From NCBI GenBank assembly GCA_963810095.1, contig CAWEMM010000012.1, positions 416,001 through 480,000 on the forward strand: DNA of 64,000 bases, given 5' to 3'. The first letter of the stretch is position 1; the number at the start of each line of letters is the position of its first letter. The position numbers and the translations under genes were made by a program. Under the pieces are notes generated by a model, which saw only the letters and a list, made by a program, of their open reading frames with translations, made no database searches and had not been told where the DNA came from. This document shows, in pieces, positions 50,189 through 55,862 of this stretch. The stretch is from an uncultured Chloroflexia bacterium. GTDB taxonomy: Bacteria; Chloroflexota; Anaerolineae; CG2-30-64-16.

Positions 50189-50218
50189 CGGCCAGGGATA
50201 GATGGACCCGCATAACGC

Positions 50219-50251
50219 AGGAGCCCGGTTTCTGGCAGAAACCGGGCTCCT
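50219..50251. repeat. REP-like palindrome (CCCGGTTTCT..AGAAACCGGG type), next to a family B half-site at ~50273-50299
   Basis: Perfect 16 bp IR with a one-base centre between convergent genes. A degenerate copy lies near 58323-58350. Confidence 0.75.
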
Positions 50252-50300
50252 TTCCTCATCATCTGTTCCGGGCAATCCAATCGGTTCAATCAGCGTTCCT

Positions 50301-50738
50301 TCATTCTTCGGATTCCTCAGTCTCTTCCGAATCGGGCGCGCGAGGGTCCCAACGCTCCACCGCATGCCGCTGCACGACGACGTTCCCGTCCGCCGTGCGG
50401 ATTTCGGCCGCGCCCAGGTCCCACCAGCCGACCTTGCCGCTGACCGTATCCCCATTCCACATTTGCAGGGTCAAGGGCCGGCCTTCCTGCATGGCGAAAA
50501 CAAACGCTCGATTCAGCGCCTTGCGCGGCCAATCGAGGCGCCAGCGCAGCTCATCAAATGGCACGCCGAAATAATCTGCCAACATGGCGATGGACGGATC
50601 GTCGCCAACGGCCCGGTAGCGCTGTTCCATGTACCGGTACAGACCCTTGGGCAACTCGGGCAGGGCGGCTTCGATCTCCGCGGGCGTAACCCCGCCCCGC
50701 TGGGCACGCAGCATCCGCAGGCGATCGCCGAGGCTCAT
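50301..50738 (-). CDS. XRE-type HTH fused to an Hfq/Sm-like domain (gene B)
   Basis: N-terminal LGDRLRMLRAQRG...LADYFGVP. C-terminal PLTLQMWNGDTVSGKVGWWD...VVVQRHAV aligns with Hfq [20 protein letters not shown]...MVYKHAI. Confidence 0.75.
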   Translation of the reverse strand: MSLGDRLRMLRAQRGGVTPAEIEAALPELPKGLYRYMEQRYRAVGDDPSIAMLADYFGVPFDELRWRLDWPRKALNRAFVFAMQEGRPLTLQMWNGDTVSGKVGWWDLGAAEIRTADGNVVVQRHAVERWDPRAPDSEETEESEE

Positions 50739-51577
50739 TGTACGTCTCCCGTGCCGTTCGACGTCACCACCATCTCCTGGGCAGCCGCCTCGCTTGTTGC
50801 CCCCGGGACCGTGCGATAGCTCACGATTGCCAGTTTGCTCAGGGTGACCTCGCTGCCGTCCCCCTGGCGCACGGTAATGTTATACGGCCCGAATCCCGCC
50901 ACCGGCCCATCGACGCTCGTCCCATCAAAGAGCACGAAGTGGAGGGGTGTACCTGCATCACGCACCCGCGTGAGGTACTGCATCTCGTACTGGTCGACGG
51001 CCTCGGGCAGGTACGCCCGGTGGCGGTCCGGTGTCGGCGTCGCGCGTATCTCCGCCTGCAACTGCACCAGCACCTGGCTGGCCTGCAACCGGTCGAACTG
51101 GTCGAGCGGCTTCCCGATTTCCTGCTCCACCGACGACCGCTCCTTGCCCAACCGCTGCAGAAGGTCGTTGATATGGGCCAACTGGCTGGCGCGGGCGGGA
51201 GCGGGCGGCTTTGCTTCAGAGGCGGGCCTGGGCGGACGCCCGGTGCGCGGGCGGGGCTGGCCTGCGGGCGGCTGCGGCCCTCCTGGCGGCGGTGGTCCCG
51301 CGGGGGCCGGCGGGCGGCTCGACAGCGGCGGCGGAGATTCGTGTCGCGTGTCCTGTCGCTCCAACTGGTTCGCACCGGGCCGGGGGTCGCAGCGCAAGCG
51401 CAGCTCGGATTCTTCGACGTAGAGGGCCTTGGCGAGTCGAGCCAGGTGCCGGGGATCAATCGAACGGGTCCCCGCTTCGTACTCCATGATCAGGCCGATG
51501 GGTAAGCCAGCACGGCTGGCGAGGGTGGCAACGCTGAGGCGCTTCTGTTCGCGCAATGCCCACAGGTTTTCAGACAT
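50735..51577 (-). CDS. XRE-type HTH, Pro-rich linker, small helical domain and Hfq/Sm-like domain (gene A)
   Basis: SD AAGGAG. NLWALREQKRLS...LASRAGL...I.EYEAG.R HTH. C-terminal YLTRVRDAGTPLHFVLFDGTSVDGPVAGFGPYNI...LSKLAI aligns with Hfq. Confidence 0.8.
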   Translation of the reverse strand: MSENLWALREQKRLSVATLASRAGLPIGLIMEYEAGTRSIDPRHLARLAKALYVEESELRLRCDPRPGANQLERQDTRHESPPPLSSRPPAPAGPPPPGGPQPPAGQPRPRTGRPPRPASEAKPPAPARASQLAHINDLLQRLGKERSSVEQEIGKPLDQFDRLQASQVLVQLQAEIRATPTPDRHRAYLPEAVDQYEMQYLTRVRDAGTPLHFVLFDGTSVDGPVAGFGPYNITVRQGDGSEVTLSKLAIVSYRTVPGATSEAAAQEMVVTSNGTGDVQ

Positions 51578-51777
51578 AGGGGTCTCCTTTGCTGGAGCTC
51601 GCAAATGCTGAGCGCGAGCTCATGCTCTCCTTTAAACTAAGCCCAACAAAAACGCAGGACAGTAGCGCGTTATACCTTTGACGTAGCCCGGGGCCGCACC
51701 ACAAGGCACGAAGACAAGAGGGAGCAGGGGCTCAATCATGAGTGCGGTGACTTAGTTCGTGTCTAGGCGAGTGTTGA

Positions 51778-52397
51778 CTAACCCTGGCCATCGATCGGCG
51801 GCAGGGGCGGGAGGCGGTCGAGGCCTTCCAGGCCGAAGTACTGGAGGAATTGCAGGGTGGTGCCGTAGAGGAACGGCCGGCCCGGTTGTTCGAGCCGGCC
51901 CACAGGTTCGACGAGCGCACGGGCGAGCAGCGTTTTCAGCACGCCGTCACAATTGACGCCCCGGATCGCCTCGATGTCGCCGCGGGTCAGCGGCTGGCGG
52001 TAGGCGATGACGGCCAGCGTCTCCAGCGCGGCGGTGGAGAGCTTCGTACTGAGGTCCAGGCCAAGAAACTTCTCGATGTACGCGGCCGCCTCGGGCGCCG
52101 TCGTCACATGCACCCGGTCGGCCCGGCGAATGACGCGGAGCCCGCGGCGTTCGCCCGCGTATCGCCCCGCAAGCGTCTCGAGCGCGGCCTGGATCACATC
52201 CTCGCCTGCGTCAAGCACCTGCGCCAGCCGCGCGATCGGAATGGGCGCCGGTGCGACGAACAGCAGAGCTTCGATGAGCGCGGGCACATCCAGTGCGGGC
52301 ACGTCGGGCGCGGCACGTCGGGTGCCGTGACCGAGATCGCGAGGGGCGCCGAGGTTACTTCGGTGTCCGTCTCGCCGCCTTGCGTTTCGATCGTCAC
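51778..52397 (-). CDS. scpB: SMC-Scp condensin subunit ScpB (probable frameshift near 52311 in the N-terminal extension)
   Basis: IEALLFVA..P, LS.AALETLAVIAYRQP.TR.DIEAIRGVN and PGRP.LYGTT..FL.YFGL. The likely GTG start at 52397 overlaps the upstream stop but is out of frame by one base. Confidence 0.9.
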
Positions 52398-52955
52398 CCG
52401 GCGCCGTCCGTGTAAGGCGCGTGGTCGATGTGCACCTGGATCTTGCCAAGCTGCAAGCCCATGCGCTCCGTAATCACTTCTTTCGCGACGGAGACGATCT
52501 CGTCGGTCTTCATCGGCACGTCGATCTCGGGCCGGGTCTGCACTTCAAGCCGCACATTCACCTGCTTGCCCCCGCCCCACACGTACGGCTCGACGCTCAC
52601 AACATCGGCCAACTGGTCGATGTGCCATGCCAGGCGCCGCGGCGACAGAGTCGGTGGTTACGGAGGCCTGGCTGCCGGTCTCTGTCACCACCCGCACCGC
52701 GCGGGGCCGGCGTCGCTTGATCTGCTGCCAGAGCAGTGGGAGGACCACCAGGATCGCCACCACGGCGAGCCCCACCCGGCCCAACGCGTACAGCAGCGGC
52801 TGGTTCGCCTGCAGTGTCTGCACCCAGCCGGCGGCCCGCGCAAAGGCCGCGGAAATGGACTGCAAGGTTTGCGCCGGGAACAAGGCAAGCATCAGGCTCA
52901 GTGCAAGGAGCACGAGGAGCAGGATGATGACGACCAGCTTGTTGAAAACGTTCAT
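52394..52955 (-). CDS. amaP: AmaP-like membrane anchor protein (Asp23-associated family), split by a frameshift near 52640
   Basis: SD AGGAGG and two TM helices, then ...SVTTDSVA|RRLAWHIDQLADVVSVEP...VRLEV...P.IDVP....EI. The two ORF-track pieces join with a single-base indel. Confidence 0.65.
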
Positions 52956-52974
52956 GGTCCCCTCCTGGGCGAGA

Positions 52975-55862
52975 TTATAGCAGCTTCGCACGCAAGCGGA
53001 TAACCAGTGCCGCAAGCAGCGCCAGCGCAAGCGCGAACAGCGCACCGATACTGATGATGACGCCGATCCGCCAGCTCTGTGGCGCGTATTCGAACACGAC
53101 TTCGTGATCTCCCGGCTCGATGCGGACGGCCCGATACAGCAGGTTTGCCTTGAGGATTTCGGCGGGTTGACCGTCGACGGTCGCACGCCAGCCGGGGTAC
53201 CAGGCATCCGCGATCACGAGCAGGCCGGTCTCGGTGGCTTGCACCCGGTAGCTCTGCCGCTCGTCCCGGTAGTCCACCAAAGTCACACCCTCTCCCGCCT
53301 GGGCCTCGGCTGCCTGTGCCCGAGCCAGCGGGGCCTCCACGACTGCCTGCGCCCGGGGCCGGAATGCCGGGTCGCCGATCGCCGCCTGGGCCGCCTTTGC
53401 GTCCGCGACGGGCATTATCCCATGTACGAGCCAGGCCCGTTCCGGCGCGCCGGTCCGCTCGTACACCTTCACGTCGCCCGAATGGATGCGGCGGAAGTCG
53501 CCTTGTGGCGATAGTGTGACGGACTGGTGGGTGCGGGCGCCGTCGCGCTCGTCGATCAAGCTGATGCCCTGGATGACCAGAGGCCCGGCGGAAGGGTTGC
53601 GCAGCGTGATACGGGCGGGCGTTCCGGGCGCCTCCAACGGCAGGACGGCCGGCTGCGGTGCGCCACCGGGTGCGCCCACGGCAGCGGGCGGTAGGGCCAG
53701 CGGAACTTCGGCCCCGTCTTCCATCCGCACCACGATCGCCACCGGCTCCTTAGGGGGTGTCAGACGCCGCAACGACGCCAACTGCGCTTGCGGGGAAGGC
53801 CGGGTAGCCTGCCAGGTCGAGTTCGAGCACGCCGTTGGCCGGGATGGTCGTGTGCTGCTCCAGGTCATAGTAAACGTCACCCGCCCACAGGTCGCGCTGC
53901 TTGTCGGTGATCACATACCGCACGCCCGTCAGGTCCAGCAGCCGCGCATCCGGAATGGCCGAGAGTTGCTCCGCAAGCCGGCCGTCCGGCGTCATGTGCT
54001 CGGGCGGCAGGAAAAGCTCCTGGAGCATGACGTAGCGCTGCAGCGGCAGCAGCCCGCCGTCGTAGCCGTCGACCGCCGGGAGGCGGAGGAGGAGCGGCAG
54101 GTTCGGTGCGAGCACCTCGACCTGCTTCGCCGCACGCACCAGGCGCTCGACTGCGACGTCCGGCAGCCGGTCGCGCCTGCAGAGCGCGCAGCTCGGCCAG
54201 GTCGCCGGGATCGTATCGGATATTCGAAAGGCTCAGGAAGCGGCCGCGGCCGCCGGATGGCCCATTGCCCGCCGCGGCAAGCAGCGCCGCGGGCGCATTG
54301 CGCAGTGCCATCGCCATCGGCGCGGTCGCCGCCACAAACGGCAGCGCCCGGCTGGCAAAGAGGAGTTCGAGAAACAGGAGCAGCACCAGGAGGGTCTGGA
54401 ACACGAAACGACGTCCCCCGCTTCGCCGCTTCGCCCCTTCGCGCTGTGCGCCTTCATCCCCCTCTGTGCCTTCGCGTTCCACCTCGGTCCCGCCCGACGC
54501 CGCAAGGGTCAGCGCACCTGCCGCGGCCGCCACTCCCACCCAAGCCGCCACAGTCAGCGGGGCCGGCCAGTGCTGCCACGCCAGCAGTCCGAGCATCGCG
54601 AGCGTAACCACAACGAGAATGACGCGGCCGGCTGTCCTTTTCGGCGGACCCGGCCGGCGGATGCGGAGCGCTGCCAGCGAGTCAAGCCCCAGGGCCGCCA
54701 GCAGGGCGGCCCCGAGCGCAAACAACTCGAGCCAGCGGGCCGGCGCCCGGAAGAGATCAAAGCCGGGCACAAAGCGCCACAGCAGGTAGTAGGCCGGGTT
54801 GTACGCGCCCAGCGCCAGGAACGCACCGAGCGCGGACAGGGCGAGGCTGCGCAGGGCGGGCCCGGCCCCGGGTGTGCGTGCCCGCGCCGCCCCCACTGTT
54901 GCCACGACGCCCAGTGCGGCAAGCAGCAGCCCGGCGATGCCCGCGTAGCCGAGAAACTCGGCGTAGCCCTCGCTGCCAAACGCCGCGTCCAGCCCGCCGC
55001 CGAAGGGGGGCAGGAAGGTCTGCAGCAGGAGCTGGGGCCGGAGCGAGAAACTGACGGCCTGCCGGTAGTCCAGCCCGCCGGTGCGCAGCCCAAGCGTATT
55101 CAGCTCGAGCGTGGGGAGCAGCTGCGCGGCAGCCAACGCCAGTGCGGGAATAACGGCCAGCAGTGGAAGCAGCCTGAGAAGCCCCGCGCGACGCACCGGC
55201 CAGCCCACGGAGAACACGGCCCATACTCCCAGCCCCACCATGTTGATAAAGGTCGTCTGCGTGTGGCCGGCCAGCACCTGGAGGCAGATGACGACGGCCA
55301 GCGCGACGAATGGCCCTATCGCCCGCGCCGGCGTGCTCGGCGAAACCCGCCTTCTGTTGACCTCATCGTACAGCCACAACATTGCGGGCAGCCACGCCAG
55401 CGCGTTCAGTTGGTTGATGTTCTCGACGCGGGCCAGCGTAAAACCGCCGAGCCCGAAGACGAGCCCGGCCGCGAACCCTGCAAGCCAGCTCGCCCGCAGC
55501 GAGCGGGTGGCCAGCGTATAGGTGAAGCCGGCAGCCAGCCAAACGTGAAGCAGCGCCGACCACACGAGCGCCTGCTCGGCCCGCAGCCAGCTGAGGGGCC
55601 AGTGGAGGGGATAGAGCACGGCCGCCTGGATGTTGGCGAGGAACGGCGCGCCGGAGAAGAGGTATGGGTTCCACAGGGGGACCTGGCCCGCCCGGAACGC
55701 CTCCATGCGGTGCGCCCAGTATGGGGTGAAGTAGGTGAAAGCGTCGACCCCCGCCAGGATGCGGTTCGTCAGCCCGAGCGGCCAGCACACGACGAGCGTC
55801 GCGAGCCCCAGCCCCAGCCAGGCCGCAATATCGGGCAGGCGGCGCCGCAACCCCGCCTTCAC
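52975..55862 (-). CDS. YfhO-family GT-C membrane glycosyltransferase, two frameshifts (~54173 and ~53755)
   Basis: D...YF.P, PLWNPY.FSG.PFLA, FRAPARW, GYDGG.LPL.RY and DAWYPGWRATVDG...ANL.YRAV, spread over three frames. Confidence 0.8.

Follow-up and report, generated by a model that had tools for sequence, protein, structure and literature searches.

The window analysed here, a stretch of 64,000 nucleotides from the genome of an uncultured Chloroflexia bacterium, contains on its minus strand two overlapping genes, A (50735-51577) and B (50301-50738), whose predicted products each join an XRE-type helix-turn-helix (HTH) domain to a domain of the Hfq family. The A-B pair is real, conserved and uncharacterised, and it is built from known kinds of parts, the Hfq family and the XRE regulators. 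Judging from family profiles and structural models, each of the two proteins carries a true Hfq-family fold, and the pair may constitute a new kind of Hfq-based transcription factor. More specifically, we give about an even chance to the reading that A and B co-assemble via their Hfq-fold domains into a DNA-binding regulator with two kinds of XRE HTH, either as a mixed ring or, at minimum, as a heterodimer.

Both genes were delineated from their open reading frames (ORFs) and translations. Gene A encodes 280 residues, arranged as an XRE-HTH, a basic Pro/Arg-rich linker, a three-helix middle domain and an Hfq-fold domain; gene B encodes 145 residues, in which a divergent XRE-HTH is packed on an Hfq-fold domain and followed by an acidic tail. 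The TGA stop of A and the ATG start of B overlap in an ATGA at 50735-50738 (TCAT on the plus strand), an arrangement that implies translational coupling. We placed the start of A at the ATG at 51577, and not at the upstream TTG of the longest ORF, because all A homologs in the family alignment begin there with M-[AS]-E-N-L-W and because a Shine-Dalgarno (SD) sequence, AAGGAGA (51583-51589), lies 6 nt upstream of that codon.

As single sequences, the Hfq-fold domains fall under the Pfam cut-off of 27 bits: A scored 12.1 bits against Hfq (E 0.15) and B 18.1 bits against Hfq_1 (E 0.003), with 15.7 bits for B against NCBIfam NF047718, whose cut-off is 52. When family profiles were used, the B profile (35 sequences) retrieved, besides Caulobacter Hfq 6gwk (E 3.1e-5), about 30 further entries of Hfq, and the A profile (34 sequences) retrieved B. 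subtilis Hfq 3ahu at E 0.0084; the two domains also align with each other (hhalign E 6.3e-5, probability 64.5%). At E <= 0.001, Hfq_1 (PF21979) was matched by 38 of 55 B-family members and Hfq (PF17209) by 10 of 55, while Hfq was matched by 3 of 40 A-family members; two A orthologs from a 301-genome sample of the phylum attained about 27 bits against Hfq. A comparison of the B profile with 1.84 billion cluster representatives yielded 58 clusters at E <= 0.001. Among the distant matches were two proteins of 174 and 178 aa (P0294, E 3.4e-5; P0298, E 1.4e-4) with two canonical Hfq domains in tandem, and a B-like subfamily (P0274, P0277, P0280 and P0290; HTH plus Hfq-fold domain) with long Gly/Arg/Asn-rich low-complexity C-terminal tails, made for instance of GGNFRDNNRD-like repeated units, where B has its acidic tail.

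The AlphaFold2 (AF2) model of B (pLDDT 93.3, pTM 0.83) consists of five helices, then one more helix and five strands, and that of A (pLDDT 82.1) is divided into four parts, namely the HTH, a disordered linker, the three-helix module and again a helix plus five strands. The Sm fold is thus modelled in both proteins, as helix 72-85 plus five strands in B (Hfq-fold domain, residues 72-132; 50343-50525, minus strand) and as helix 192-208 plus five strands in A (residues 192-256; 50810-51004, minus strand). In Foldseek searches against the PDB, all the top matches listed for both models were Hfq entries; A matched 6gwk at E 2.4e-5, with a TM (target) of up to 0.92 and an rmsd of 0.8 Å, and B matched the same entry at E 4e-4 with a TM of 0.71-0.83. 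A VIA search, independent of Foldseek, gave for A seven top matches that were all Hfq (Z 11.2-11.9), the next Sm protein being an archaeal SmAP (Z 9.6), and the B domain aligned with 1kq1_A at Z 9.6 and rmsd 1.6 over 60 residues. At 280 and 145 residues, neither A nor B is a small stand-alone protein of about 70-110 aa, and the fusion of HTH and Hfq-fold domain was retained in every aligned homolog. The preliminary description of this stretch had spoken of XRE-type beginnings and Hfq-like ends in both proteins, and had called for a check of the C-terminal domains; family profiles, AF2 models and fold searches agree with it on both ends, Hfq stands on top in the profile and Foldseek searches for A and B alike, and the modelled C-terminal fold is that of Sm proteins.

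At the other end of A, residues 1-60 (51398-51577, minus strand) form a basic XRE/Cro-C1-type HTH (median pI 9.4) that passes the Pfam cut-offs for both HTH_31 (27.4 bits; cut-off 27) and HTH_3 (26.2 bits; cut-off 23). HTH_3 was matched by all 40 of the A-family members, and in the fold search residues 3-60 superposed on C.AhdI (1y7y_B) with Z 9.8 and rmsd 1.4 over 58 aligned residues. By sequence this is a canonical basic XRE domain, which suggests DNA binding. In B, residues 1-69 (50532-50738, minus strand) make up a slightly acidic, divergent HTH with an invariant Y-R-x-x-E-Q-R-Y-R third helix; it reaches 20.6 bits against HTH_31 (E 5.5e-4), under the sequence cut-off of 27, and 14 of 55 B-family members match that model at E <= 0.001. 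Its modelled fold is nonetheless clearly of XRE type: residues 1-67 match the N-terminal domain of CapH (7t5u_A; Z 9.3, rmsd 2.1, 65 aligned), and further matches include 2eby_B (Z 9.3), P22 c2 (2r1j_L; Z 8.9), DdrO, SinR and the 434 repressor. Both proteins, then, bear the five-helix XRE fold in the models and in the fold search, and many residues are invariant in both HTHs in the family alignments. The XRE repressors SinR, DdrO, CapH, ImmR and P22 c2, whose N-terminal five-helix HTH matches those of A and B at Z 8-9.8, share with them the overall layout, an HTH followed by a C-terminal domain for assembly or sensing, but none has an Hfq/Sm fold as that C-terminal domain. Among the matches listed, no solved chain covered both domains of B convincingly, those that spanned them having an rmsd of 6.0-6.8.

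The pairing of the two genes is strict. A lies immediately upstream of B in 19/19 loci from 18 related genomes (11/11, plus 8/8 further loci, four of which belong to other families of the class). A species-level scan with one genome per species, drawn partly from the same genomes as this set, gave 69 loci; a same-strand A-family gene preceded B in 68 of them, the exception being cut by a contig end, and the 4-nt overlap of A stop and B start was kept in 61 of the 68. These figures agree with the translational coupling stated in the preliminary description. By record title, all 69 loci come from Chloroflexota metagenome-assembled genomes (MAGs), mostly Anaerolineae/Anaerolineales, with a few Chloroflexia, one Caldilineae and one Ardenticatenaceae. 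Within the window's own family the B profile found a match in 22 of 24 genomes, and among 16 from other families of the class it found one in 4, always once per genome (27 of the 41 genomes had a match); in a sample spread evenly over the phylum, only 2 of 300 other genomes were matched at E <= 1e-10. Mean column identity within the two families is 71% and 62%.

Strict pairing, the stop/start overlap and the single match per genome argue more strongly than any other evidence for a joint function of A and B, which we propose because the 4-nt overlap is conserved and the two genes co-occur without fail. Two irregular loci were noted. In an Anaerolineae MAG, a 377-aa ORF that reads as a zinc-type alcohol-dehydrogenase-like protein (L065:485-1618) stands between A and B, making this the sole locus of 68 in which the two are not contiguous; in one of the 19 relatives' loci (L022:4268-5004; G008, 65% complete), A is broken into a 134-aa and an 84-aa ORF in different frames, owing to a frameshift or to faulty assembly.

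By the prevailing view, Hfq is a homomeric RNA chaperone that stands alone, and the preliminary description had asked whether these genomes possess one besides A and B. None was found. PF17209 and PF21979 matched nothing but genes A and B in the genome of the window, which is 6.13 Mb in size and 88.5% complete, and canonical Hfq was above cut-off in none of 41 genomes (40 relatives and the window's own); the sub-threshold places listed for this set numbered 14, of which 12 were inside A or B genes and two were ORFs of ~91 aa elsewhere. In the 301-genome phylum sample, three genomes had any Hfq match at E <= 0.001, and both matches above cut-off were A genes, adjoining that sample's B-profile matches. 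Because the samples include incomplete genomes, we say that canonical Hfq was not found rather than that it is absent. Three Chloroflexota genomes without a match to the B family contain ORFs of ~90 aa with sub-threshold Hfq similarity (E 6e-5 to 9e-3; G032:C8:5168-5320, G026:C126:7853-7999 and G055:C79:2867-3001), which may be stand-alone Hfq-like proteins.

For the pocket residues, P0294 and P0298 supplied the canonical Hfq domains with which both families were aligned, and positions are given in the E. coli Hfq numbering (Gln8, Gln41, Phe/Tyr42, Lys56, His57). The canonical D40-Q41-F42 corresponds to G-P-Y in A and to D-L-G in B, and the canonical Y55-K56-H57-A58-I59 to S-K-L-A-I in A and to Q-R-H-A-V in B. 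A therefore retains the pocket aromatic (Tyr232) and the lysine (Lys248), with Leu249 in place of the Sm2 histidine, and B retains the aspartate, a basic residue and the histidine but replaces the aromatic by Gly109. Where Hfq has Gln8, A has an invariant Glu and B a residue other than Gln; the helix register of B differs by one residue between the profile match and the pocket alignment. Neither protein has the full Sm2 motif [YF]-K-H-A-[IV] together with the proximal uridine pocket, each being partial. The complementary losses announced in the preliminary description are thus confirmed against canonical Hfq. Since the pocket-loop residues vary little or not at all in either family (WWDLGA and QRHAV are invariant in B), they must be under selection. 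As aligned, the Hfq-like residue pattern of A and B is far beyond chance. With these residues, six canonical uridine pockets could be rebuilt neither by one of the families alone nor by an alternating ring.

The Hfq-fold domain of A is acidic (median net charge -3, pI 4.7) and that of B mildly basic (+1); conversely, the linker of A is basic (median +5) and the tail of B acidic (median -5). On paper, these opposite charges suggest that the two proteins complement each other, and the pattern is not one that indicates a basic RNA-binding surface of the classical sort.

These results bear on whether A-B is mainly an RNA chaperone or RNA-binding regulator that replaces Hfq, its HTHs being accessory (RNA work tethered to the nucleoid) or repurposed for RNA or protein contacts. 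Such a role would agree with the failure to find canonical Hfq above cut-off in the window's genome, in the 41-genome set or, besides the two A genes, in the 301-genome sample; with the Arg-His at the Sm2 positions of B and the Tyr and Lys of A; and with the Gly/Arg/Asn-rich tails of the distant B-like subfamily, which are of a kind common in RNA-binding proteins. On the other hand, Gln8, Gln41 and His57 are replaced by Glu, Pro and Leu in A, and Gln41 and Phe42 by Leu and Gly in B; the A domain is acidic, and B shows no conservation at the positions of the rim arginines. The nearest Pfam model of B is the cyanobacterial-type Hfq_1, whose members bind RNA poorly. Moreover, most genomes of the phylum sample have neither Hfq nor the A-B pair, so that no replacement is required. 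We consider a replacement of Hfq decidedly improbable. The RNA sensing or tethering put forward in the preliminary description found no support, given the incomplete uridine pocket, the acidic Hfq domain of A and the proximity of B to the cyanobacterial-type 'Hfq related' family.

The preliminary description had further suggested that A and B may come together in a heteromeric Sm ring. A joint function is favoured by the overlap and the co-occurrence; for co-assembly itself, the evidence is a co-fold that only weakly favours it. One composition was co-folded, three copies of A(186-262) with three of B(1-137), each with its own alignment. The score was 0.56 (runs of 0.59, 0.53 and 0.56) as against 0.06 for the best of three controls (0.00-0.06), which the tool terms 'weak support', and the runs agreed in at least 40% of contacts, with a partner pLDDT of 81-82. 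In the calibration of the tool, 58 of 80 solved complexes attained the mark, as did 2 of 110 mismatched pairs; a passing score of 0.60 or less was obtained for only 7 of the 80 solved complexes and for both of the mismatches that passed. The result is a score, from which a closed alternating ring is not readable, and since Hfq hexamers have already been solved, the pass may reflect likeness and not binding.

Bacterial Hfq and archaeal Sm proteins are homomeric. Taken with this precedent, the strong conservation of each family by itself (the 71% and 62% identity given above) and the weakness of the A-B co-fold score would also be consistent with independent assemblies, A6 and B6 (or A2 and B2), encoded by genes that are merely co-transcribed paralogs. 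The pair, however, is never apart in 68/68 testable loci and keeps its overlap in 61 of them, the charges and pocket residues of A and B are complementary, and the co-fold controls reached only 0.00-0.06. Separate homomers are, in our judgement, quite unlikely.

To our knowledge, the WYL regulators are the only Sm-fold transcription factors so far described, and they have no sequence match to A or B. One of them, PafBC, consists of two paralogous chains, PafB and PafC, as A-B does. By this analogy, A and B might form a heterodimer in the manner of PafB and PafC, with no ring, in which the Hfq-fold domains sense single-stranded DNA (ssDNA), RNA or a nucleotide and switch the HTHs. Joining an HTH to an Sm fold is the same logic as that of the WYL regulators, and the B domain is indeed matched by DriD (7tzv_A, Z 8.5), PafBC (6sj9_B, Z 8.2) and CapW (9c5g_B, Z 7.7). 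According to PMC6789036, the WYL domain of PafBC has an Sm fold like that of Hfq, with a conserved beta4/beta5 loop that is essential and was proposed to bind a ligand; the equivalent loop is invariant here (KLA in A, QRHA in B). An HTH plus an Sm fold with a conserved beta4/beta5 loop is common to A/B and to PafBC, DriD, CapW and BrxR. Yet neither A nor B matched Pfam WYL (PF13280) even at E <= 10, the B domain has Z 9.6 for Hfq vs 8.5 for WYL, and no WYL entry occurs among the 50 matches listed for A. The HTH of WYL regulators is winged, they possess a WCX domain and they act as dimers, whereas A and B have an XRE-type HTH, no WYL signature and nothing like WCX after the Sm fold, B ending in a short acidic tail. 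Finally, the sequence homology of A and B is to ring-forming Hfq proper. We regard a ring-less sensor of the WYL kind as unlikely, although in concept the parallel to PafBC is a close one.

Under the reading given at the outset, A-B would be a lineage-specific two-subunit transcription factor or nucleoid-associated protein. One bicistronic mRNA would deliver A and B in fixed proportion; each subunit would supply one XRE-type HTH, and the two Hfq-fold domains would act as the assembly platform, arranged, by homology to Hfq, as an alternating A/B ring or, at minimum, as an A-B heterodimer. Since each subunit brings its own HTH, the complex would carry two kinds, that of B held rigid against its Hfq-fold domain and that of A placed on a basic tether of ~65 residues that also carries the three-helix module. 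As for the residues of the pore loops that are invariant (GPY and KLA in A, WWDLGA and QRHA in B), they might serve as the subunit interface or as a modified central site, distinct from the canonical six-fold uridine pocket. Autoregulation by the complex is probable, through a conserved box and/or an inverted repeat in its own leader. Co-assembly, the form of the ring, the DNA targets and autoregulation are all features that we infer.

The leader in question is the 200-nt gap between scpB and A (51578-51777), and it has two features conserved in close relatives. One is an inverted repeat or hairpin, GAGCTCGC-N11-GCGAGCTC (51595-51621, minus strand), located 5 nt before the SD and 17 nt before the start codon. 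Four of its 8 pairs show compensatory changes in 12 sequences, and 93.8% of its cells are paired vs 81.7% in shuffles, with 0/500 shuffles as high; as an RNA it is thermodynamically ordinary (-18 kcal/mol, z -1.1). A stem of at least 6 pairs at -14 to -19 is present in 15 of 62 loci, all of close relatives. The repeat is found once in the 6.1-Mb genome, and for want of a second copy the palindrome was discarded as the operator of a regulon. The other feature is a 17-nt box, GGTATAACGCGCTACTG (51660-51676, minus strand), ~85-100 nt upstream of the start codon, which is the best-conserved block of the upstream alignment and a candidate operator or -10/start region. Its 14-nt core (<=3 mismatches) recurs 95-101 nt before the start in 13/62 loci vs 0/62 shuffled upstream sequences. 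A second site of the box, on contig 9 of G000 with 2 mismatches, was dropped, as its context is ordinary and promoter-like and one such site is expected by chance. A scan for sigma-70 promoters returned 0 consensus sites. The repeat could be an RNA hairpin or a dyad operator, and the leader features taken together might act as operator, promoter element or RNA leader. Because they are unrecognisable in distant loci, we infer autoregulation rather than assert it.

Directly upstream of this leader lies scpB, which encodes a condensin subunit (51778-52449, minus strand; Pfam SMC_ScpB, E 9e-53). The same gene stands upstream of A in 15 of 19 relatives' loci, one of them from another family; in the species-level scan, 34 of 68 loci have it no more than 400 nt from A, and 40 of 68 have it somewhere in the fetched flank. 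This linkage, together with the multivalency that a ring with several HTHs would have, invites the explanation that A-B is a multivalent nucleoid-bridging protein working with SMC-ScpAB. The linkage is, however, absent in 28/68 loci and may be inherited synteny, and the leader, with its own conserved elements, intervenes between scpB and A. Nor is scpA adjacent to scpB in the window; just upstream of scpB, the interval 52394-53207 has overlapping 72-aa and 220-aa ORFs without a Pfam match, and beyond these come large YfhO-like membrane protein genes. There is also no evidence for non-specific DNA binding. A role in chromosome organisation appears to us very improbable.

Several points weigh against a co-assembled, DNA-binding A-B regulator. 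The co-fold is weak and unlike the calibration set of the tool, there is no direct evidence of contact between A and B, and no natural A-B fusion was found among longer proteins, which by the tool's own account is weak evidence. One candidate fusion, P0286, runs from the C-terminus of A into the N-terminus of B and then out of frame, and was treated as a gene-calling or frameshift artefact. WYL domains of DriD, PafBC and CapW also match the B domain (Z 7.7-8.5), and the Sm-fold domains of WYL regulators do not form rings. The HTH of B is slightly acidic (median pI 5.7) and under the cut-off by sequence, hence it may not bind DNA. The missing scpB linkage in 28 of the 68 loci counts in the same sense. 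Lastly, the leader elements are recognisable only in close relatives (~13-15 of 62 loci) and therefore could reflect recent common ancestry, and the leader hairpin, instead of being an operator, might be no more than a structure in the RNA.

A bolder version of the proposal would have A and B form a closed, alternating A3B3 Hfq-type ring with six XRE HTHs of two kinds, whose remodelled central site binds a nascent RNA or ssDNA signal, thus coupling sequence-specific DNA binding to RNA/ssDNA sensing in a phylum in which, as sampled, no other Hfq was found. We hold this to be tentative and rather unlikely; if true, the A3B3 ring would be the first heteromeric Sm ring in bacteria, parallel to the eukaryotic Lsm rings. 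In the eukaryotic Sm/Lsm hetero-heptamers, heteromeric rings are built from paralogs, a parallel to be drawn if A and B alternate in one ring, and spliceosomal Sm/Lsm chains do occur among the fold matches of A and B (Z 7.7-9.5). The eukaryotic rings, however, comprise seven paralogs of Lsm type, whereas A-B has two of Hfq type, with fused DNA-binding domains, and is a putative heteromer.

Turning to the other parts of the two proteins, residues 61-126 of A (51200-51397, minus strand) are predicted to be a disordered, basic Pro/Arg-rich linker (pLDDT 46-67), variable in length and sequence except for conserved Arg/Pro. Residues 127-180 (51038-51199, minus strand) are a conserved three-helix domain (pLDDT 84-96; helices 130-143, 147-154 and 163-179), for which there was no Pfam match better than E 0.03 and no usable Atlas match. 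In its fold, this domain is weakly like the C-terminal domain of Red-beta (8tfu_A, Z 9.3, rmsd 2.5, 62 aligned; 6m9k_D, Z 9.0, rmsd 1.5, 58 aligned), which binds lambda exonuclease and the SSB tail. A likeness of Z 9.0-9.3 is weak where helical domains are concerned, but it does hint that the A module may dock other proteins; being in the range of common helical arrangements, it was not used to infer function. The strand-5 end of the Hfq-fold domain is followed by 24 residues in A and 12 in B, both disordered; the tail of B (residues 134-145; 50304-50339, minus strand) is acidic (net -7 here, family median -5; pLDDT 44-79). A and B are small, soluble-looking proteins.

Downstream of B, a perfect, GC-rich hairpin of 13 bp (50220-50250; -31.8 kcal/mol, z -6.4, 0/200 shuffles as stable) lies between the convergent B and thioesterase genes and is likely a bidirectional terminator ending the A-B operon, so that the A-B unit looks like a two-gene operon. 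An Rfam scan of 50200-52000 (E <= 10) gave chance-level miRNA/sRNA matches on this hairpin only, which were set aside. A search for sequencing runs listed no RNA run, and the best DNA runs had 0.22-0.37 of the sampled words. According to Pfam, the neighbours of A-B are housekeeping genes (scpB, thioesterase, phosphofructokinase (PFK) and panB). We rejected a toxin-antitoxin reading because of the single match per genome, this housekeeping synteny and the fact that neither product is toxin-like. A defence or phage origin was rejected after searches with PADLOC and PHROGs, which returned generic HTH matches only and no defence or phage family.

Compared with what is known, A and B stand closest to Hfq (PF17209): the fold is the same (an N-terminal helix plus five strands), sequence homology is detectable in both, they have in common the Gly of Sm1 and, in Sm2, the frame x-[KR]-x-A-[IV], and solved Hfq structures are the top fold matches. 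Hfq, however, stands alone and is the product of one gene, while the A and B domains are fused to an HTH (and in A also to the linker and the three-helix module) and belong to two diverged paralogs, known from sequence and models, with an incomplete uridine pocket and an acidic domain in A. The 'Hfq related' proteins of cyanobacterial type (PF21979, Hfq_1; NF047718; 3hfo, 3hfn) provide the best sequence model for B, and 3hfo is the tied top fold match of A (Z 11.9; Z 9.3 for B). Like A and B, these proteins have diverged from the canonical RNA-binding residues; unlike them, they are stand-alone proteins of ~70 aa without an HTH.

Source databases label the A and B proteins 'hypothetical', 'Hfq-like protein', 'sRNA-binding regulator protein Hfq' or 'XRE-family regulator'. 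In full-text literature searches, we found no paper describing an HTH-Hfq fusion or the A-B gene pair, in keeping with the preliminary description, to which no characterised system of such architecture was known.

Irrespective of the actual form of the assembly, the A-B pair presents Hfq-family domains, true ones by profile and model, recruited into predicted DNA-binding proteins as two diverged paralogs, and these are practically the sole Hfq-family members found in the sampled Chloroflexota. If A and B co-assemble, they would offer a simple bacterial model for the origin of heteromeric Sm rings by duplication, and a new transcription-factor design in which a ring scaffold carries one HTH rigidly and the other on a tether. 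Should the ring have kept the binding of RNA or ssDNA, transcription control would be linked directly to nucleic-acid sensing; if it has not, the pair would be a clear case of the Hfq fold being reused purely for oligomerisation.

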